Origin: a phage
Reading direction: 5' to 3' (one strand)
DNA length: 64,000 nucleotides
Assembly: GCA_025677605.1 (NCBI GenBank)
Contig: GCA_025677605.1_4110.1
In this document: positions 7,973 to 54,158 of the stretch, piece after piece
Position numbering within the stretch: the stretch's first letter is position 1
Layout of the letters: every line of letters starts with the position of its first letter
Notes under the pieces: generated by a model
The model's input: only the letters and a program-made list of their open reading frames with translations
Told to the model about the DNA's origin: nothing
Databases searched by the model: none
Program-made: the position numbers and the translations under genes

Positions 7973-8147
7973 TGTAAAACATTATACTTGATTCTAAGTA
8001 CAATGCAAGTACTTTTTTAAAAATAGTTTTCAGTACTAGCCACCAGCAAACAATAGATACATTTATGCACCCGGTGGGCTAGTTTTTGTCTATGCATATA
8101 TAATAGCAAAGGGACTGACCGGAGTCAATCCCTTTTTTCAATTTATT

Positions 8148-10766: not shown

Positions 10767-10885
10767 TGTAGTACTCCTTATTAGATTGATATATTTTATT
10801 TACACTTCCGCACCCTGTGGGCTAGTGAGCTATCTCTCAATGAATATATAATAGCAAAATGGCTGACCGAAGTCAACCACTTTTT

Positions 10886-38417: not shown

Positions 38418-38969
38418 TTATCCACCAGAACTCGTGTGAGCGGCACTTCTGGCTACCGAAGACCCAAACCCATTGCGGGTGATTGTGGTCGTTGTAGGAG
38501 GTTTTGGAGCTAATGCGGAACTTGATACAGTACGTGTTGTACCTTTTGCAGTACTGCTACCGTAGGAGTTACCACCAGCATCATAGTAGTTCCCTTTAGA
38601 GTTGTATAGTGGTTGACTAGCAAACCCATTACCACTACTATGGAACCCGCTCATGATTGGAATCCAAAAGAATCCCGAACTATGTTGTTGACATTGATTA
38701 CCAAAATCGCTTGAGCAATCACTCTGTGAACTATATTTTGGTGCTACCTTTTCCGATTCAGTGAGTGCTTTCTTATAATCATCATCACATTGTACAGGAT
38801 TACTTCCTGACTTTTTACATTGGTCTGCGTTCTGATATACAGAAATATCTTCAGAGCGTTCACATCCAGTCATAATAAAAGTACTACTAAGTGCCAAGGC
38901 AATCGCTCCGTACTTAATAGTTTTTACTTTACGAAATCGTTCACGAATGACATTAGAACTTCGTTTCAT
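38418..38969 (-). CDS. putative lipoprotein (183 aa)
   Basis: signal peptide with lipobox IMTGC; Gly/Ser-rich C-terminus; last gene of operon. Confidence 0.6.
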   Translation of the reverse strand: MKRSSNVIRERFRKVKTIKYGAIALALSSTFIMTGCERSEDISVYQNADQCKKSGSNPVQCDDDYKKALTESEKVAPKYSSQSDCSSDFGNQCQQHSSGFFWIPIMSGFHSSGNGFASQPLYNSKGNYYDAGGNSYGSSTAKGTTRTVSSSALAPKPPTTTTITRNGFGSSVARSAAHTSSGG

Positions 38970-39352
38970 TATTTGTCAATCCCCATTCGTTTTGAACGCA
39001 TATCTACGTGAATTGATTCCAGCTTCTTAACACCACGATATAGCCAATAGAACGCAGTAATAATAAGAGCACCACACGGAATCAGCACACTAAAGAATGT
39101 TACGAATCCATAGAACGTTGCCCCATCATCACCATTCATGCCACCAAATATTACTTCAATAACAACAGAAGCTACGGCGAACATATAATATGTCATACCC
39201 ATAACAACTGCTATTTGTCCAGCACTACTTTGTTCAGCACGACGAACCCAATTGAATACTGGATTAATACAGAAGTAGTATAGAAGTAACCAGACTGAAC
39301 CTAAAGCGAATACTGCAATTTCAAAAATACAAAAGTAATCACGGTAAGTCAT
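38969..39352 (-). CDS. small polytopic membrane protein, paralog family member (127 aa)
   Basis: three hydrophobic segments; 1-nt overlaps with neighbours. Confidence 0.6.
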   Translation of the reverse strand: MTYRDYFCIFEIAVFALGSVWLLLYYFCINPVFNWVRRAEQSSAGQIAVVMGMTYYMFAVASVVIEVIFGGMNGDDGATFYGFVTFFSVLIPCGALIITAFYWLYRGVKKLESIHVDMRSKRMGIDK

Positions 39353-39705
39353 TATTTCATCCTCTCACCTAAACGTTTGTGTAGTTTACATAATTTGTCA
39401 AAAATGGTTAACGACATACATACAGTAAATCCAATACAAGCTAGTGTTAGACACATTAAATCTGCCACCATACCAGCTACAAGCAATGCACGAGCTTCAA
39501 GTAATAACCCAAATAGCATTGCAAAATAACCGAAATAGTATGCAACTGAAAAGAGTGTTATAGCATTACCAATATAGTACACAATATTATCATACCAAGT
39601 ACTGAATGGTTTCATGTGAAAGAATTTCATCACAAGTAGTACAGATAACATAAAGAATACCAGTGTACATAACATGAATATAACTTGACCAGCAGGAGAA
39701 AACAT
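39352..39705 (-). CDS. small polytopic membrane protein, paralog family member (117 aa)
   Basis: hydrophobic; FFHMKPF loop motif; basic C-terminus. Confidence 0.6.
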   Translation of the reverse strand: MFSPAGQVIFMLCTLVFFMLSVLLVMKFFHMKPFSTWYDNIVYYIGNAITLFSVAYYFGYFAMLFGLLLEARALLVAGMVADLMCLTLACIGFTVCMSLTIFDKLCKLHKRLGERMK

Positions 39706-39707
39706 AA

Positions 39708-40091
39708 TTAACCTCGTTTCTTACGTTTAATGTTATTGTGAATTTCATAAAAGAAAGGAACAATAGCAGTACAGATTAAATTATACATAAGAATAATCAT
39801 GAACAATAACCCGAATATTGAAGAAAACACTAATCCAATAATGCACAGTACTGGTTCACCAATTGAAGTGATTCCAATCCCGAATACGTATACAATCCAT
39901 GTGAAGATAGTGGTTACTAAGCAAATGATATATCCAACATGGAAGAAGCACTTAGATTCGTAGTCGGATTCAATATCCTCATACACATCTTCGACGAACT
40001 TTACACAAAAGAACTTTCCAATGTATATTAATGCACCTATTGTTAGACATGCACTTAGGATATTAAGAATAACATATATTGTTGTGTACAT
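39708..40091 (-). CDS. small polytopic membrane protein, paralog family member (127 aa)
   Basis: hydrophobic; KFFCVKF loop; basic C-terminus KRKKRG. Confidence 0.6.
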   Translation of the reverse strand: MYTTIYVILNILSACLTIGALIYIGKFFCVKFVEDVYEDIESDYESKCFFHVGYIICLVTTIFTWIVYVFGIGITSIGEPVLCIIGLVFSSIFGLLFMIILMYNLICTAIVPFFYEIHNNIKRKKRG

Positions 40092-40411
40092 TATACCCTC
40101 TTATCTTTTTGTTTACGATGGAAATTTGATACCAAAGAACATAACTTTCCAATATAACTACAGAATGCTGCGAATACACACAGGACTGCAAATAATGTAC
40201 ACAATGACATTTCCAAATCATTATCAGGTGGATTGAATATAAGCAGTACTACCCATAATGTACTAAGCAATGTAAAAGCTACATTACCAGCCCATGCATT
40301 TTTACACTGCTTTGCATAGAAGTCAAATGGTTTTAGTGCAAAGAGAAAACCAATCCAGCAAACCCAAAAGTAGAATGCACTTACTGTGAAAAGAATCAAT
40401 TCAATCTTCAT
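40091..40411 (-). CDS. small polytopic membrane protein, paralog family member (106 aa)
   Basis: hydrophobic; basic C-terminus. Confidence 0.6.
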   Translation of the reverse strand: MKIELILFTVSAFYFWVCWIGFLFALKPFDFYAKQCKNAWAGNVAFTLLSTLWVVLLIFNPPDNDLEMSLCTLFAVLCVFAAFCSYIGKLCSLVSNFHRKQKDKRV

Positions 40412-40412
40412 A

Positions 40413-40748
40413 TTATTTCCTGTGATCTGGGATAGAGTTTCGTAGTTTAACTACAAATGGATACAAAAGCACACCAATGTAAACAATAGTCGATATCCAG
40501 TAAAAACCCAAGGAAATGATTTCACCATTAGAACGTTTACCAGTACTGATAATTCCGTAATGGATGAATGGCATCACTGACGATGACCAAAACCAGCAGT
40601 GAAGTTTAAAACTCATCAGATGATTATCGATGAATTCACTGATTGGACGTTTAAAGAACCACATCAAGAAATAAAACCCAGCGGAAATGATGTAGTAAAT
40701 TGTACTTACTTTCAAGTACCACGGTAGTAAACTGATAAAGTACTCCAT
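40413..40748 (-). CDS. small polytopic membrane protein, paralog family member (111 aa)
   Basis: track ORF 40413..40850 trimmed to ATG at 40746-40748 (1-nt overlap with upstream stop); WFFKRPI loop. Confidence 0.55.
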   Translation of the reverse strand: MEYFISLLPWYLKVSTIYYIISAGFYFLMWFFKRPISEFIDNHLMSFKLHCWFWSSSVMPFIHYGIISTGKRSNGEIISLGFYWISTIVYIGVLLYPFVVKLRNSIPDHRK

Positions 40749-41101
40749 TATGCCTCCGGTATTTTGTTGCGTGCAAATAACATTTTTTTCCACACAATAT
40801 TCGATAGAATTACAATTAGTGTTGGAATACATATCATAACAAAGGTACATAGCATAAAGTTAAGATTATCACCGTGACCTAATCCTATGACTGTAAGAAC
40901 TGCACCCATAGTATACGTGATTGAGGTTGCAATTACAACACTTTCATAGTACTCTGAATTATTAATCTTGTAGTAAATTGGACGTTTGAAATACCATCCA
41001 ATGAAGTTTAGAACCATCAAAAACGGATATAAGATAATGAGTACATAGTTCAGTGTACTAGCAATATCACTGGTTGTCAACCATTTAATAACCTCTTGCA
41101 T
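40748..41101 (-). CDS. small polytopic membrane protein, paralog family member (117 aa)
   Basis: track ORF 40748..41206 trimmed to ATG at 41099-41101; WYFKRPI loop. Confidence 0.55.
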   Translation of the reverse strand: MQEVIKWLTTSDIASTLNYVLIILYPFLMVLNFIGWYFKRPIYYKINNSEYYESVVIATSITYTMGAVLTVIGLGHGDNLNFMLCTFVMICIPTLIVILSNIVWKKMLFARNKIPEA

Positions 41102-41433
41102 TAGAAATCTCCCACTATACGTTTCCTGTACAAATACAGACCATACACACCCATCATTACAAGCCACATAATAGTAGTTCCGAATACAATGTATTGTGTA
41201 ATACACGGAAGGTGTGGTTCAAACAAATATATCAAGTGCACTAGAATTCCCAGTACTATTCCTACACCCTGGACGATTGTATACAATATCATATAGTCTG
41301 GGTACAATTTCTCAAGAAGACGACCTTTCTTAAAGAACCACAAGATTCCGATGAGAGCGTGGTAGTATACGAATAGACACATGTATACTAATGTAATTTT
41401 AATCATAACCTCAGTTGAAAATAAATTAATCAT
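41101..41433 (-). CDS. small polytopic membrane protein, paralog family member (110 aa)
   Basis: WFFKKGR loop; basic C-terminus. Confidence 0.6.
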   Translation of the reverse strand: MINLFSTEVMIKITLVYMCLFVYYHALIGILWFFKKGRLLEKLYPDYMILYTIVQGVGIVLGILVHLIYLFEPHLPCITQYIVFGTTIMWLVMMGVYGLYLYRKRIVGDF

Positions 41434-41443
41434 ATGTTCCTCG

Positions 41444-41662
41444 TTAAGTGAACTTAATCATAGTTGATAGTAATACCATGTATACGGATACTACGCTAAT
41501 TAAAACAATAATTTTTAATCCAAGAGATGCTTCTTGAGGATTATACTCCTTTTCAGTATCAATATCAAGTGTATGAAACCATCTATAAACTTTAACTAAA
41601 ACGACAATCATGTTAATACATGCATATAATAACATGACCTTATCGATGTTATATGTTATCAA
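41444..41662 (-). CDS. small membrane protein (72 aa)
   Basis: two hydrophobic segments. Confidence 0.55.
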   Translation of the reverse strand: MITYNIDKVMLLYACINMIVVLVKVYRWFHTLDIDTEKEYNPQEASLGLKIIVLISVVSVYMVLLSTMIKFT

Positions 41663-42436
41663 TTAATTTTTCTCCAGGAACATATTTTCAGCCATTGATT
41701 CCCAGTCGTATGGGAATTTATTGTAAAGACCAGCGATCAGTACTGGCATACGCAGTGAAGGACTACGCAGACGGTCTTCATTGCTCAGCATCCAGTTCAG
41801 GATTGCTTTACAACCATTTTTGTTAACACCATTGTTTTCAAGGATGTTAGTTTTGTTCATGATGTTCTCAATGTGAATCATCACTTCTTCGTTGGTGAAC
41901 AGTTGCAGGTCAACAAAGATACTACGAGTGATCAGTGCATCAATGTGTGGTGCTAAACTGCTTTTACCTTTAGCAATCTGTGACAGGTTTTTGTTAGTCA
42001 GGAAGATTACTTTACCACGGAATTCAAACTGCTTAGGGATACCCTGCTGTTCCAGGTACTTAGCAGAAGTAGCGTAAGATACTACACGCTTCTCAGAAGT
42101 ATCCAATACAGCTTTAAGCAAATCAATATTCGTCTCATCAGAGAAGATATCAACATCATCAAGTAACAGTACTGAAGCAGCGTGACGTGAACGATACAGT
42201 GCTTCGTACAGACCAACAGTAGTTACTTTGCCACTGATTTTCTTGTAGTCGATTTCAAAGTTGTCATCAGCTTTCTGCAACCGTTGGTCAACGTTGAAAG
42301 TTTTACCAACACCACCCTTGCCAGAAACGATCAGAGAGTTGATAGAGTTAGTTTGTGTATCAAGAAGACATTCCAGTGCTGCCATCATGGAGTTGAAGTT
42401 CTTTTCGATTTGGATTGCTTTCTCTGTACGGTTCAT
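41663..42436 (-). CDS. P-loop NTPase with ParA/MinD-type deviant Walker A (257 aa)
   Basis: SGKGGVGKT Walker A; hydrophobic stretch + DD (LLLDDVD) as Walker B; first gene of operon. Confidence 0.55.
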   Translation of the reverse strand: MNRTEKAIQIEKNFNSMMAALECLLDTQTNSINSLIVSGKGGVGKTFNVDQRLQKADDNFEIDYKKISGKVTTVGLYEALYRSRHAASVLLLDDVDIFSDETNIDLLKAVLDTSEKRVVSYATSAKYLEQQGIPKQFEFRGKVIFLTNKNLSQIAKGKSSLAPHIDALITRSIFVDLQLFTNEEVMIHIENIMNKTNILENNGVNKNGCKAILNWMLSNEDRLRSPSLRMPVLIAGLYNKFPYDWESMAENMFLEKN

Positions 42437-42464: not shown

Positions 42465-42500
42465 ATTATAGCAAAAAGGGCTGACCGAAGTCAACCTTTT
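42465..42500 (-). promoter_or_regulatory. terminator-promoter fusion module (stem GGGUUGAC-UUCG-GUCAGCCC, U-run, TATAAT)
   Basis: -35-like TTGACT lies inside the terminator stem; TATAAT 18 bp downstream on minus strand. Confidence 0.6.
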
Positions 42501-42504
42501 TGTT

Positions 42505-43632
42505 TTATACAATCACTTCACCAAAAATACCATTGATATCACGTTCAATGATGTATTCTCCTTCATGTTCAGCTAAGAATTTTTTAATGGCTTCATTAAC
42601 TTTAGGACGATGGATATTATTGAATGTTTCTGTGCAACCATCTCCCTTTTCATAATAACCTTTATTATATAGTTTACCACATAACGCAATTGTATGTATT
42701 ATTATTTCCAATTCTCTAGCAAGTTTCCCACCCACATTCTTATGAAATAAAATGGAAATTTCATTACTCCAAAAATTATCTACTTTATATATTTTTTTAT
42801 AAGATAAGTTTTGTGGACTTAATCTTGCTTTAATAGTTTTGTTTGTAATACCAGCTTTATCCGATTTTTTTGCATAATCATTGTGAATATAAAATCTTCC
42901 AGGCTTGGAAGTTTTAAATCCTTTTACTGCACACGTGGGACAACCAGAACCAGACAGATGTGAATTTGGTGTTTGTTGAAATTCACCATGTTCTTTGCAT
43001 ATTATAATAGAGGTTACTTGGTTGTTAATGTAGTCATATAAAGAATAATCATACTTATTTCCGTGTATAAGATGTGATTTTTTTATAAATTCACCTAAAG
43101 TTTGTTTCGTGCATTCTTGACAACCAATTTTACCAGTAGCTAAGTCAGTAATTGTGGGTTTTTTTATATCACCACAATCATTACATACTACTTCAATTTT
43201 AGTTCTACTAGGAAGTGTAGAGTTAAACGAAGTTATTCCACTATAAGTAAATTTATCATAACCATATTTTTTGTTGATGACACTAATATGATTAAGGCTG
43301 TAATATGGAATATTAATAATATTGTAAAAAATCTTCCCATTAAATCCCTGCCTAATAAAATTCGTGCAGGTGGCTCCAATAACTAACATACCATCGTTAT
43401 TCACTACAAGTTTGGTTTTTGATTTAGATATATAATCTTGTGATCTATTGATATAGAATCCAAGAACTCTTGGATCATTTATTTCACCCATAATACTAAT
43501 AGGATCTTGAGCAATGTTGGATTTTTTTACAAAATTTATATCTTCGGCTTTCATCCACTCAAAAAGCATTCCATGCTCTTCATAAAAATAAACTTTTTCA
43601 CCATCTTCATTAAAATAGTACTGTTCAAACAT
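42505..43632 (-). CDS. zinc-ribbon protein with T5orf172/GIY-YIG-like C-terminal region (375 aa)
   Basis: two CxxC...CxxC pairs; GRFYIH...KAGITN...KARL resembles T5orf172 motif; by eye only. Confidence 0.4.
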   Translation of the reverse strand: MFEQYYFNEDGEKVYFYEEHGMLFEWMKAEDINFVKKSNIAQDPISIMGEINDPRVLGFYINRSQDYISKSKTKLVVNNDGMLVIGATCTNFIRQGFNGKIFYNIINIPYYSLNHISVINKKYGYDKFTYSGITSFNSTLPSRTKIEVVCNDCGDIKKPTITDLATGKIGCQECTKQTLGEFIKKSHLIHGNKYDYSLYDYINNQVTSIIICKEHGEFQQTPNSHLSGSGCPTCAVKGFKTSKPGRFYIHNDYAKKSDKAGITNKTIKARLSPQNLSYKKIYKVDNFWSNEISILFHKNVGGKLARELEIIIHTIALCGKLYNKGYYEKGDGCTETFNNIHRPKVNEAIKKFLAEHEGEYIIERDINGIFGEVIV

Positions 43633-43887: not shown

Positions 43888-43920
43888 ATTATAGCAAAAA
43901 GGGCTGACCGAAGTCAACCC
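43888..43920 (-). promoter_or_regulatory. terminator-promoter fusion module
   Basis: GGGCTGACCGAAGTCAACCC stem with A5 on plus strand and rc TATAAT at 43888-43893. Confidence 0.6.
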
Positions 43921-44616: not shown

Positions 44617-44652
44617 ATTATAGCAAAAAGGGCTGACTGAAGTCAATCCTTT
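44617..44652 (-). promoter_or_regulatory. terminator-promoter fusion module
   Basis: AGGGCTGACTGAAGTCAATCCT stem; rc TATAAT at 44617-44622. Confidence 0.6.
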
Positions 44653-45057: not shown

Positions 45058-45309
45058 TTAGAAGAACACAAACCAAGTCCAGAATAAATTCCACACTACA
45101 AATAAAGACATAGTGGTTTTATGTACAATATCAGCAGTACTGGTCCATCCTCCACCGTGTCCTATTCCATTTATGAATAGAACTAAGAACAAGATACCAT
45201 TTACTACAATAGTACATACTAAGTACACAAACACATTCCATGCAAGTTCAGGGGATACTAAAGTAAATGGTAAAACAATTAGTAGTATTAGAACTAATAA
45301 AATTTTCAT
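45058..45309 (-). CDS. small membrane protein (83 aa)
   Basis: hydrophobic throughout. Confidence 0.6.
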   Translation of the reverse strand: MKILLVLILLIVLPFTLVSPELAWNVFVYLVCTIVVNGILFLVLFINGIGHGGGWTSTADIVHKTTMSLFVVWNLFWTWFVFF

Positions 45310-46176: not shown

Positions 46177-46527
46177 TCAACGCTCTGGTAATTTGTCTCG
46201 GAGTTTCTCAAGTTTCATAATCAAAGAGAAGAGTCCCCACGCGAAAAACCAAACTACAGTCCCAAAAACAACAAAGAATGTTGTTAGTGTGCACATCATT
46301 CCACCAGTACTTTGGATACCAGTTAGCAGTACTTCACCCACTGCCATAGTTAAGAATACAAATGCGAAGAAGTGAATTGGTGCATCATCCCAATAGCGTT
46401 TGTAGAATGTATTGTATCGGAAGAATAATAAAATATACCCAAGCATATAGTACATCCATCCTAGTCCTGATACGATAAACGATACCAGGTTTAATTCATA
46501 CATATAATCATTCATTATCAGGTTCAT
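46177..46527 (-). CDS. small membrane protein (about 116 aa; start uncertain)
   Basis: hydrophobic; track ORF begins at GTG; first ATG at 46525-46527. Confidence 0.5.
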   Translation of the reverse strand: MNLIMNDYMYELNLVSFIVSGLGWMYYMLGYILLFFRYNTFYKRYWDDAPIHFFAFVFLTMAVGEVLLTGIQSTGGMMCTLTTFFVVFGTVVWFFAWGLFSLIMKLEKLRDKLPER

Positions 46528-46768
46528 CACAGTTCATAAGAGCGTTACGGGCAATCCTTGCGGATTGTGCCAGGGACAATACACTCTCCAGTGTAGCAAC
46601 ACTGTAAGAGTTAGAACCAATGGTAATCAGAAGAGATTGTGAATTATCAACGTCAATGTAACCAACTTCAACGCGTTGTGGAGGACCATCGTTCAGTACA
46701 TAGTTAGTGTCATGTTCAACACGAGCAAGACGGATTTGTGTAAACATTTTCAATTCAGGGTTTTGCAT
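46508..46768 (-). CDS. hypothetical protein (86 aa)
   Basis: track ORF; GGAGAT RBS. Confidence 0.6.
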   Translation of the reverse strand: MQNPELKMFTQIRLARVEHDTNYVLNDGPPQRVEVGYIDVDNSQSLLITIGSNSYSVATLESVLSLAQSARIARNALMNCDEPDNE

Positions 46769-47084: not shown

Positions 47085-47122
47085 ATTATAGCAAAAAAGG
47101 CTGACCGAAGTCAACCTCTTTT
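47085..47122 (-). promoter_or_regulatory. terminator-promoter fusion module
   Basis: AGGCTGACCGAAGTCAACCT stem flanked by A6 and T6; rc TATAAT at 47085-47090. Confidence 0.6.
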
Positions 47123-48676: not shown

Positions 48677-48707
48677 AGATTATTAAATGTTACCTCTATG
48701 TCATATT

Positions 48708-48748
48708 TATAGAATAGCAAAAAGGGTCAACAAAAGTCAACCCTTTTT
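48708..48748 (-). promoter_or_regulatory. terminator-promoter fusion module (variant stem)
   Basis: GGGTCAACAAAAGTCAACCC with flanking A/T runs. Confidence 0.5.
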
Positions 48749-51369: not shown

Positions 51370-51408
51370 GTATAACAAAAAAGGCTGACGTTAGTCAACC
51401 TTTTTTAA
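51370..51408 (-). promoter_or_regulatory. terminator-promoter fusion module
   Basis: AAGGCTGACGTTAGTCAACCTT stem flanked by A/T runs. Confidence 0.55.
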
Positions 51409-52604: not shown

Positions 52605-52937
52605 TTACTTATCAGATTTTGATTTAAACTTCACTTTAAGTAAGAAAATCCAATCAGAAACCAAACCACTAAACAAACATTGAATAAACCATACAATAGC
52701 TACTAAATTTTCAACAACGGAAATCCATGCAAGTACAGTAGATAGTGGTAATAAAAAGCCCAATAGCCACACAACAGCATACACACATACTAAAACATAA
52801 AAGATCCCAACTACTGGACTATCCAGATTGAATAGTTTACGTAGGTCATTTTTAACTTCTTCATCTTTCTGGAATGCTTCAAAAAGTAATACAAAAAGAA
52901 GAACAAAACAAGGGATAGAAAGAATAAATGATAACAT
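52605..52937 (-). CDS. membrane protein (110 aa)
   Basis: hydrophobic segments. Confidence 0.6.
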   Translation of the reverse strand: MLSFILSIPCFVLLFVLLFEAFQKDEEVKNDLRKLFNLDSPVVGIFYVLVCVYAVVWLLGFLLPLSTVLAWISVVENLVAIVWFIQCLFSGLVSDWIFLLKVKFKSKSDK

Positions 52938-53250: not shown

Positions 53251-53493
53251 CTAACCTTCAAGTTTGTCAAGTACTTCTTTTTCTTGGAACAACATTAGGA
53301 ATGAAATATATAGTAGTATATGACTCACAATCATCATCCAATCAGTAGACCAATAAAGAGTCAGACTTACCAATACCCATGCAGTATTCAAGAGAAATAC
53401 TTTTACAGCATCATAAAATTTACCCCATACTAAAGTTAAAATAGTTGGAGAAAAGTTAACTAATAAAATCAGTACAACGTATAAAATTAACAT
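53251..53493 (-). CDS. small membrane protein (80 aa)
   Basis: track ORF 53251..53535 trimmed to ATG at 53491-53493 (1-nt overlap). Confidence 0.55.
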   Translation of the reverse strand: MLILYVVLILLVNFSPTILTLVWGKFYDAVKVFLLNTAWVLVSLTLYWSTDWMMIVSHILLYISFLMLFQEKEVLDKLEG

Positions 53494-54158
53494 TATAGTG
53501 TTTCCTTTTTCTTTACTGGGATTAGTTCGTAACAATAAACAACATCAATACCTTCTTCATCATACAAGTACTCATGCTTTTTCTTATGAGTACCAATGTA
53601 TGTGCCGTGCTTATGCCAACGCCACCCACCATGTTCAGGTTGATCTTCCTTGTACACTGGATGAAATCCAATAACAACTTCCATTTCAGATGTAAGAACA
53701 TTCTTATGTTTCTTAAGGATCTGCTGTAAGTTGTCAGCTACACCGTAAGGGGAATTACAATGTGTTGACAATGGGAATGGTCTACCACTTGGCAATAATT
53801 CACTCTCATATGAAGCACTACACATAGCAAGAAAATCATCAGAATTATAGAACTCACCATTGTTCGTATTAATATATTGCAGACTTTTAATAACTTCATA
53901 GTCTGTCATAAAGTTAATGACTTTATCTATACCATAACCCGCTAATATACCAGGTGTAGGCGTCTGCACAGCACAAAATAAACGATTACTATCTTCTTCC
54001 GTTAGATTAGCCTTTTCCCAGAATGGATGCTTTCTGTCAAAACGACTTTCGTATAAAGTTCCTTTGATACCATCGCTATCGTATGGAACTTTCTCAAGAT
54101 ACATACCACGACTTTGTACCATATCATCACTAATAATGTAACTTAAATTGGCGAGCAT
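53493..54158 (-). CDS. hypothetical protein (221 aa)
   Basis: track ORF. Confidence 0.6.
   Translation of the reverse strand: MLANLSYIISDDMVQSRGMYLEKVPYDSDGIKGTLYESRFDRKHPFWEKANLTEEDSNRLFCAVQTPTPGILAGYGIDKVINFMTDYEVIKSLQYINTNNGEFYNSDDFLAMCSASYESELLPSGRPFPLSTHCNSPYGVADNLQQILKKHKNVLTSEMEVVIGFHPVYKEDQPEHGGWRWHKHGTYIGTHKKKHEYLYDEEGIDVVYCYELIPVKKKETL

Follow-up and report, generated by a model that had tools for sequence, protein, structure and literature searches.

A NrdC.10-type ATPase gene followed by a variable cassette of small membrane protein genes and a lipoprotein gene in a RaK2-like jumbo phage

Do ten tightly packed genes for an ATPase, eight small membrane proteins and a lipoprotein encode one membrane machine, or a core ATPase followed by accessory proteins? 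This question is raised by positions 38418-42436 (minus strand) of a 64,000-nucleotide stretch of phage DNA (contig GCA_025677605.1_4110.1), which is here referred to as the window. An earlier note on this sequence had described the genes as an operon that could encode a single assembly with a ParA/MinD-like ATPase. Our comparisons show that the ATPase gene is followed by an accessory cassette that consists of m1, a protein with two transmembrane (TM) helices, seven members of a phage-only family of 3-TM proteins (m2-m8) and a host-derived lipoprotein of the YgiB type, and that the ATPase, the array and the lipoprotein are distributed independently, as judged from the sequences of related phages. 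We tentatively favour the reading that this is an early unit of swappable, envelope-directed accessory genes behind a core ATPase, not one ParA-driven machine, and that it may serve envelope takeover or superinfection exclusion, which we regard as possible rather than probable.

The window derives from an E. coli phage, a jumbo myovirus of the RaK2-like type that belongs to the genus Asteriusvirus. The region aligned to Escherichia phage A4 (355.5 kb) with 96.5% nucleotide identity over 86% of the query, and for all relatives except A4 the nucleotide alignment was limited to the ATPase gene and the intergenic element upstream of it. All ten minus-strand open reading frames (ORFs) were confirmed at the coordinates given in the earlier note: the ATPase gene (41663-42436) is followed by m1 (41444-41662), m2 (41101-41433), m3 (40748-41101), m4 (40413-40748), m5 (40091-40411), m6 (39708-40091), m7 (39352-39705), m8 (38969-39352) and the lipoprotein gene (38418-38969), and this gene order is retained even in phages without alignable DNA. 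The spacings at the junctions, from the ATPase to the lipoprotein, are 0, +10, -1, -1, +1, -1, +2, -1 and -1 nucleotides (nt). The "0-1 nt overlaps" of the earlier note were thus nearly right, since the spacings range from -1 to +2 apart from a single 10-nt gap. A Shine-Dalgarno-like GAGG, GGAG or AGGA precedes every start in the operon and is placed in the last codons of the preceding gene. This includes m1, which has a GGAG upstream of its TTG start right behind the ATPase stop codon and is also annotated in phage A4, where this 72-amino-acid (aa) membrane protein (A4_227) is mislabelled "endonuclease V".

Separate distributions of the ATPase, the array and the lipoprotein

Homologues of the ATPase, which is related to T4 NrdC.10 (see below), were identified by tblastn in 1,310 records of phages, among them T4 and T2, and mostly occur without any array. 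We examined the gene neighbourhood in a sample of 85 loci that carry an ATPase homologue. Genes of the 3-TM family were located directly downstream in 14 of the 18 loci with an ATPase at least 46% identical to that of the window, and in none of the 67 loci with an ATPase at most 37% identical to it. The ATPase is kept without the array in loci L014, L020, L021 and L022, and also in T4, where the downstream genes, nrdC.9-nrdC.7, do not belong to the 3-TM family.

The main rival to the reading favoured here is that the proteins form one membrane machine, in which a hetero-oligomer of 3-TM proteins is powered by a NrdC.10 AAA+ ring docked on their cytoplasmic C-terminal helices and functions in remodelling, translocation or extraction, with the lipoprotein as its partner in the periplasm or the outer membrane. 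Such a machine would fit with the location of the array immediately 3' of the ATPase gene in 14 of 14 sampled array loci, among them the metagenomic contig L016, in which NrdC.10 and the array have a different far flank (a NrdC.11-like RlaP gene and a ligase). It fits poorly with an ATPase that is far commoner than the array and is kept in the four loci above and in T4, and we consider it unlikely.

A comparison with phage UE-S1 (L008) bears on the same question. The ATPase of UE-S1 is 99.2% identical to that of the window, but the 3-TM proteins beside it are only 28-65% identical, which is a further point against a single machine. At the DNA level, similarity does not extend past the stop codon of the ATPase gene. 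The orthologues of m4 in UE-S1 and WPEC5 are 63-65% identical to m4. A gene of the m8 type was found in 45 phage records, with 100% identity in A4 and below 40% in the other 44. Relative to A4 (L001), the m genes differ by 0-10 nt each, which makes the ratio of nonsynonymous to synonymous substitution rates (dN/dS) uninformative for them, and the lipoprotein gene differs by 36 nt (proportion of synonymous differences, pS, 0.22). By these sequence comparisons, the array behaves as a replaceable block that has been exchanged between close relatives. We also observed mosaic boundaries, with the ATPase closer to UE-S1 and the m genes near-identical to A4.

The array varies in size, with 3 to 9 paralogues per locus. 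RaK2 has nine small ORFs behind NrdC.10, of which eight are matched by the family hidden Markov model (HMM), and the corresponding numbers are 6-7 in UE-S1, 7 in WPEC5, 6 in GAP32, 7 in XbC2 and 5 in Yen9-04. In the arrays of GAP32, Yen9-04 and XbC2, the run of 3-TM genes is broken by a conserved ORF for a soluble protein of 254-260 aa (L009:4416-5180, L012:4397-5179 and L011:4131-4913), and in these phages a single-TM protein with an acidic tail then precedes the DUF1190 gene (L009:6669-6947, L012:6662-6943 and L011:6432-6755). The soluble ORF was considered as a second ATPase and rejected, as it has no similarity to the ATPase and matches no Pfam family.

Positional orthologues in UE-S1, WPEC5 and RaK2 keep the order m2, m3, m4, m5, m6, [m7], m8; orthologues of m2 were identified in all three phages and an orthologue of m7 in WPEC5. 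It follows that the paralogues arose by tandem duplication long ago and are not redundant copies, and their order is conserved across genera. Seven distinct paralogues in a fixed order are what subunits of a machine might be expected to show, but the number of paralogues varies and a probable copy is dispersed into another operon (see below). A more specific version of the machine, in which each of the seven to nine paralogues is a subunit that the others cannot replace, in a hetero-oligomeric inner-membrane complex peculiar to phages that is assembled or driven by the NrdC.10 ring through the conserved cytoplasmic C-terminal helix, is in our view quite improbable.

The 3-TM family was found in every RaK2-like jumbo phage examined, with hosts in E. 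coli, Klebsiella, Salmonella, Cronobacter, Yersinia and Xanthomonas. A HMMER scan of 1.84 billion representative proteins recovered 20 clusters at E <= 1e-3, all with proteins of 81-127 aa, and when the family profile was run against 5.8 billion proteins in a word-indexed search, only 7 matches were obtained, all from the same phages. By these searches, the family is confined to RaK2-like jumbo phages. We found no paper that describes the array, and the annotations of GAP32 and CBB stop at "membrane protein, 3 TM" and "putative lipoprotein DUF1190".

The distribution of the lipoprotein gene is different again. YgiB-like genes were identified by tblastn in 135 phage records, and in Merlin, 4MG, CR9 and Special G the gene occurs alone, without a 3-TM array. 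UE-S1 and WPEC5, which belong to the same genus as the phage studied here, have no YgiB-like gene; the absence of the lipoprotein from these two phages and its solitary occurrence elsewhere are both difficult to reconcile with a single machine. An unrelated 216-aa ORF near that position in UE-S1 and WPEC5 was rejected as a candidate, being neither a DUF1190 protein nor predicted to contain a TM segment.

Decoupling of the ATPase from the array is supported by the identity break in UE-S1, the arrayless locus L022 and the probable dispersed paralogue in another transcription unit. Together with the wide distribution of the ATPase and the solitary YgiB-like genes, the identity break and the dispersed paralogue speak against the single assembly of the earlier note.

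The ATPase as a homologue of T4 NrdC.10

The ATPase (41663-42436, minus strand) has 257 aa and happens to read GKGGVGKT within the stretch SGKGGVGKT, from which the earlier note had taken it to be ParA/MinD-like. Comparison with 31 homologues did not bear this out. The signature lysine of the ParA/MinD motif corresponds to position 40, which is K in only 6 of the 31 sequences and otherwise mostly A (15 sequences), R (4) or S (3), and position 41 is G in only 11 of the 31. The residues G42, G44, K45, D93, D94, N148, R171 and R229 are invariant. The family motif is the classical GxxGxGK[ST], and the Walker B motif is of the form hhhhDD. In the structure predicted with AlphaFold2 (pLDDT 93, pTM 0.87), a helical lid comes after an alpha/beta core. 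Nearly all of the 50 Foldseek matches listed from the PDB are AAA+ proteins, including CbbQ, DnaA, RuvB, dynein, NSF, RFC, ClpX, ORC and sigma-54 activators, and no ParA or MinD protein is among these 50. Unlike ParA/MinD, the protein thus combines an AAA+ fold with a helical lid, a hhhhDD Walker B motif and the sensor and arginine-finger motifs, and the unconserved K40 and the AAA+ fold matches rule out a ParA/MinD identity.

All the features expected of AAA+ proteins were identified, that is, Walker A, Walker B, the sensor-1 asparagine (N148), two invariant arginines (R171 and R229) that correspond to the arginine finger and sensor 2, and a C-terminal helical lid. The matches to the Pfam families AAA_16 and AAA were below the threshold, and a sequence search against the PDB with the ATPase gave nothing at E below 0.7. 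A weak AAA match had been recorded for NrdC.10 in a survey of T4-like genomes in 2006 (PMC1524935). By sequence and predicted structure, the ATPase is a classical AAA+ protein. As Walker A and B, N148, R171 and R229 are kept, it probably oligomerizes and hydrolyzes ATP, and this complete catalytic set is a point in favour of a machine.

The relationship to NrdC.10 is indicated by a match to phrog_1250 (E 1e-99), which begins at position 78 of 327 in the profile, and by sequence identities of about 40% to the T4 and T2 proteins (40.7% to T4 over residues 9-249) and 53% to RaK2 ORF307. The latter is annotated as nrdC.10, and the GAP32 orthologue is likewise named nrdC.10-like in its record. The position of the match in T4, two genes upstream of nrdC.8, fits with nrdC.10. 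The similarity to T4 NrdC.10 covers the whole AAA+ module, with the Walker A and B motifs, the sensor-1 asparagine and the two invariant arginines in common, but the T4 protein is longer (322 aa) and contains an N-terminal extension of about 65 aa that the phage protein lacks. The ATPase is thus not a well-characterized phage enzyme of unrelated role, an outcome against which the earlier note had set its proposal, because T4 NrdC.10 is itself uncharacterized. We infer that NrdC.10 is a core gene of the T4 superfamily that happens to head this unit. If a NrdC.10-driven complex were nevertheless present, it would provide the first function for the widespread NrdC.10 family, with membrane partners that differ by phage lineage.

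Homologues of NrdC.10 carry several misleading names in public records, such as "thioredoxin", "transcriptional regulator FleQ" and "clamp loader of DNA polymerase"; records with mislabels of this kind, or of m1 (A4_227 in ON286972), include ON286972, OL964735 (T73t3_94), PQ471516, OY979421 and others.

The small membrane proteins and the lipoprotein

Pairwise BLAST searches among the eight small membrane proteins were nearly silent, and only m3-m4 reached an E-value of 0.006. We therefore compared profiles with hhalign after orthologues had been added to each paralogue group; reversed-sequence controls had a mean probability of 0.6%. Probabilities of 95% for m3-m4 and 67% for m3-m5 were obtained in one subfamily (A), and of 89% for m6-m8 and 43% for m6-m7 in another (B). 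In addition, m7 was linked to P0074 (92%), m3 to the GAP32 group (64%) and m5 to L016d (47%). The link of m2 to subfamily A is weak, with 25% for m2-m3 with enlarged groups and 71% with smaller groups. The links across the subfamilies were also weak (m5-P0074, 36%; m6-L016d, 39%; m4-m6, 9% over 100 columns). These results point to two subfamilies, A (m2-m5) and B (m6-m8), of one probable 3-TM family, and set m1 apart. The protein m1 has two hydrophobic peaks without a basic tail, and neither hhalign nor the family HMM detected a relation to m2-m8. The eight paralogous 3-TM proteins described in the earlier note are thus reduced to seven, and their paralogy was recovered within the two blocks, with weak links between them. 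We also considered T4 NrdC.7 as a member of the family, but it was rejected with a score of 31% to one group over 19 columns and at most 4% to the others.

Hydropathy analysis identified three TM segments in m2, m3 and m5-m8, and two in m1. Three are present also in m4 if its weakly hydrophobic, aromatic-rich TM2 is counted; with a stricter cut-off, three peaks were recovered in six of the m2-m8 proteins and TM2 of m4 was missed. The GAP32 homologues carry the record note "3 transmembrane domains (TMHMM, Phobius)". The layout given in the earlier note, with TM1, a loop, TM2-TM3 and a basic tail, is present in all of m2-m8. Lysine and arginine residues number 2-5 in loop 1 and 3-7 in the C-terminal tail, as compared to 0-1 in the N-terminus and in the TM2-TM3 turn, which is acidic. 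Because these residues sit in loop 1 and the tail, we infer an N-out/C-in topology. The AlphaFold2 model of m8 (pLDDT 79) agrees with this: it has three long helices, with a short interfacial helix between TM1 and TM2 and with TM3 running on into the cytoplasmic tail. A fold search with this model gave no match below E 2.

The loop after TM1 is shared, but its motif is looser than the (W/K)FFK(R/K)P of the earlier note and reads roughly [WKY][FY]Fxx[KN]P. It is WFFKKG in m2 (110 aa; phrog_19454), WYFKRP in m3 (117 aa) and WFFKRP in m4 (111 aa; phrog_27396, E 9e-45). The remaining members are m5 (106 aa), m6 (127 aa; phrog_26405 and phrog_27618), which has an acidic cytoplasmic loop and a KRKKRG tail, m7 (117 aa) and m8 (127 aa), which is the best-conserved paralogue and contains the pattern MTYRDYF..YYFCINP..EVIFGG..DG..IHxxIxxKRMG. 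Overall, the family is spread over at least seven PHROGs. The C-terminus carries the motif hydrophobic-x-x-hydrophobic-[H/R]-x-x-hydrophobic-x-x-[K/R][K/R], and F27 and H115 (m8 numbering) do not vary within subfamily B. Some of the codons for the terminal K-R-G belong to the ribosome-binding site of the following gene, but the tail motif persists in copies that have no overlapping gene behind them. This persistence, the conservation of the tail motif and the invariant histidine of subfamily B are consistent with a docking surface of the kind that a machine would require.

Away from the array, at 46177-46530 (minus strand), a probable ninth family member was identified by sequence in a separate upstream transcription unit. 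This ORF encodes a protein of 116-117 aa with a LFFRYN loop and a KLRDKLPER tail, which the family HMM, built without it, scores at E 5e-8, and it has a hhalign probability of 37% to the m3 group. Comparable family copies are located about 2 kb upstream of the ATPase in the IMG/VR loci L026, L032 and L033.

No Pfam family matches the 3-TM proteins. No match to the Pfam family Imm was found, and a single SieB match (E 0.055) in 1 of 39 family members is noise. The protein m8 has a sub-threshold match to DUF350 (PF03994; E 0.0036), the only one among the 39 members, and other members match unrelated TM families at similar E-values.

With about 105-125 aa, three predicted TM helices in m2-m8, an N-out/C-in topology and a basic, charged C-terminus, these proteins have the general layout of class I holins such as lambda S105, and it could be asked whether they are holin-like or antiholin-like proteins that set the timing of lysis or inhibit it. 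This is very unlikely. The operon has a sigma-70 promoter of the early type and no late-type motif (see below), the proteins come in seven to nine copies, no lysis gene is present in the operon, no endolysin or spanin is encoded nearby and no holin family in Pfam or PHROGs was matched. The endolysin of RaK2-like phages is encoded elsewhere and has its own N-terminal TM segment (PMC5259590), which also counts against a role in lysis control. The statement of the earlier note that the operon is neither a holin-endolysin cassette nor a known transporter thus stands.

The last gene of the operon (38418-38969, minus strand) encodes a protein of 183 aa with a signal peptide, an IMTGC lipobox and four conserved cysteines, in agreement with the lipobox lipoprotein of the earlier note. 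It matches PF06693 (DUF1190) with 108.9 bits (cut-off 22; E 4e-31) and the NCBIfam equivalog PRK11653 with 153.6 bits, which is below the cut-off of 223 (E 7e-45). The identity to E. coli YgiB is 43% from end to end (E 2e-52), as compared to 26% to YjfM. The lipobox reads MKRSSNVIRERFRKVKTIKYGAIALALSSTFIMTG-C and aligns with LAG-C in YgiB; both proteins have a signal peptide, the GC of the lipobox followed by E, the four cysteines and the C-terminal motif TTTxTRxGFG, which is TTTITRNGFG in the phage protein. Unlike YgiB (223 aa), the phage protein lacks a Gln/Ala-rich linker, and unlike the E. coli tolC-ygiBC locus, there is no ygiC-type ligase gene or tolC beside the phage gene; no match to an ATP-grasp or GspS-like ligase was found among the ten operon proteins. 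The CBB homologue is LipoP-positive. By sequence comparison, the protein is a diverged, shortened YgiB homologue and a predicted lipoprotein, and its gene is host-derived. A YgiB-like lipoprotein of unknown role was already noted by the authors of the phage Moon genome (PMC4319498). YgiB of E. coli is a predicted outer-membrane lipoprotein whose gene shares a transcript with tolC and ygiC (PMC11762307). It depends on Cpx, and its mutants show fitness defects under envelope stress (bioRxiv 10.1101/2022.08.05.503015).

The pairs ygiB-ygiC and yjfM-yjfC are adjacent in E. coli, where yjfL (DUF350) is located directly upstream of yjfM (DUF1190), and DUF1190 is paired with DUF350 in some bacterial PspA/polyamine operons (PMC11237479). 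This arrangement, and the weak DUF350 match of m8, suggest an origin of m8 and the lipoprotein gene from a host yjfL-yjfM module. However, only 1 of 39 family members matches DUF350, the other members match unrelated TM families similarly well, a BLASTP comparison of m8 with E. coli YjfL gave an E-value of 3, DUF350 proteins have four TM helices and the lipoprotein is of the YgiB type rather than the YjfM type. Such an origin is hardly credible and was effectively refuted by the single DUF350 match, the YjfL comparison and the type of the lipoprotein.

Putative early transcription and possible roles of the unit

Upstream of the ATPase gene, a terminator hairpin with an embedded sigma-70 promoter was identified by terminator and promoter scans (42465-42496, minus strand). 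It consists of GGTTGACTTCGGTCAGCC, a T-run and then TGCTATAAT, or in full GGTTGACTTCGGTCAGCC-CTTTTT-GCTATAAT. The near-consensus promoter, TTGACT-N18-TATAAT, has its -35 box at 42494-42489 inside the hairpin stem and its -10 box, of the TG-extended type, at 42470-42465, and scored 11/12. The terminator-plus-promoter cassette AAAAAgGGTTGACTTCGGTCAGCCcTTTTTGCTATAAT is present in nine copies in the window, all on the minus strand (1748-1765, 8113-8130, 10861-10878, 42479-42496, 43902-43919, 44631-44648, 47099-47116, 51383-51400 and 59814-59831), with 0 expected, and it recurs at several sites in many Asteriusvirus genomes. The cassette resembles the promoter-early stem-loop (PeSL) units of T4-type phages.

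At the other end, the hairpin AAAAAGCCCAC-ATCAA-GTGGGCTTTTT (38389-38415) is located 3' of the lipoprotein stop codon. It was found on the minus strand by the terminator scan, and direct reading identified a T-run on both strands, so that the operon is closed by a bidirectional intrinsic terminator, as the earlier note had it. Inside the 4-kb operon, neither a further terminator-promoter cassette nor the T4-type late octamer TATAAATA was found. With a promoter upstream, a terminator downstream, no internal cassette and no late octamer, the ten genes look like a single early transcription unit read by the host RNA polymerase. The octamer is also strongly depleted in the window as a whole, with a single site at 48704-48711 (minus strand) as compared to 12.5 +/- 3.1 expected from shuffled sequences.

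The terminator is common to the operon and a convergent gene (35397-38387, plus strand), which starts with TTG and encodes 996 aa that include an RCC1-like beta-propeller region. It belongs to the arrays of RCC1-like genes that every RaK2-like phage examined carries downstream of the cassette. Some records call these genes "DNA condensation protein", probably through a misleading transfer of the name. On the other side, a 375-aa ORF (42505-43632, minus strand) between denV and the operon has a sub-threshold match to a treble-clef zinc finger (DUF4379). Its position is occupied by a different, 565-aa ORF in A4 and by endonuclease and DUF4379 ORFs in WPEC5, and it is possibly a mobile insertion of the endonuclease type. 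The part of the genome around the operon is rich in genes for small membrane proteins: in the remaining approximately 60 kb of the window, four other small ORFs with at least three hydropathy peaks were identified (45058-45309, 52605-52937, 53251-53535 and 62834-63265, all on the minus strand), none of which is matched by the family HMM. A run of seven consecutive family members (m2-m8) is thus not a product of chance.

An early promoter would also suit a role in anti-defence, in which each paralogue inhibits, or acts as a decoy for, a different membrane-bound abortive-infection or defence effector, and swaps of the cassette track the defence repertoires of the hosts. The array diverges extremely even where the flanks of two phages are near-identical, and the family is restricted to phage genomes. 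These are indirect indications of such a role, but the paralogue order is conserved rather than shuffled. Moreover, no match to a known defence or anti-defence protein was obtained with Pfam or PADLOC; the only PADLOC matches were two at noise level (E 0.01-0.02), both of the ATPase. We judge this role to be unlikely.

Superinfection exclusion is a role of early small inner-membrane proteins of phages (for example, T4 Imm and HK97 gp15) and of phage lipoproteins (for example, T5 Llp and Cor). By analogy, the products of the unit resemble T4 Imm and Sp, HK97 gp15, T5 Llp and Cor in being small, membrane-associated, putatively early and encoded in a plastic genome region. They differ from these proteins in having no sequence similarity to them and in including a tandem family with seven- to nine-fold repetition and a conserved order, of a kind that those systems do not have.

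If the unit consists of swappable accessory genes behind a core ATPase, the 3-TM proteins would insert N-out/C-in into the inner membrane, with the basic aromatic loop after TM1 and the basic C-terminal helix on the cytoplasmic side and the short acidic TM2-TM3 turn in the periplasm. The membrane proteins would act on the host envelope soon after infection, independently of the ATPase, with each 3-TM paralogue occupying or blocking a different inner-membrane partner. Competing phage genomes may thereby be excluded or host membrane proteins neutralized. The YgiB copy may top up a Cpx-regulated envelope-stress lipoprotein once host gene expression stops. Most plausibly, then, the 3-TM proteins would act by occupying host membrane partners, with superinfection exclusion, host takeover or anti-defence as the effect, and superinfection exclusion, which the earlier note had listed among the possible roles, is still a live hypothesis.

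Several observations weigh against this reading. The functions of all ten proteins, and likewise the early timing, which is taken from the promoter, are read from sequence only, and no Pfam family, Imm and SieB included, resembles the 3-TM proteins. The fixed order and the long retention of seven distinct paralogues would suit the subunits of one complex at least equally well. The TAATG overlaps suggest a tight translational coupling that would also suit a complex, as the machine described above would require, although such packing is usual in these genomes. The array abuts NrdC.10 in every sampled array genome, including L016, which could reflect a functional link. Finally, the need for a Shine-Dalgarno sequence in front of the following gene may constrain part of the conserved basic tail.

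The present evidence does not reveal a new kind of machine. The nrdC.10-like naming in the RaK2 and GAP32 records and the YgiB-like lipoproteins of phages Moon and Merlin (PMC4319498) were already known. What is new is a previously undescribed, phage-only 3-TM family without a Pfam model and with an unusual evolutionary pattern. The comparisons also provide corrections to the annotation of the NrdC.10 homologues and of A4_227, and the homologues of host ygiB in 135 phage records offer a route into a poorly understood envelope gene of E. coli. A locus for competition or host interaction would be expected to show the pattern seen here, in which the paralogues keep a fixed order but their alleles are replaced wholesale next to an ATPase that is 99% conserved. 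As a candidate for such a locus, the array would be relevant for jumbo phages that are developed as therapy.

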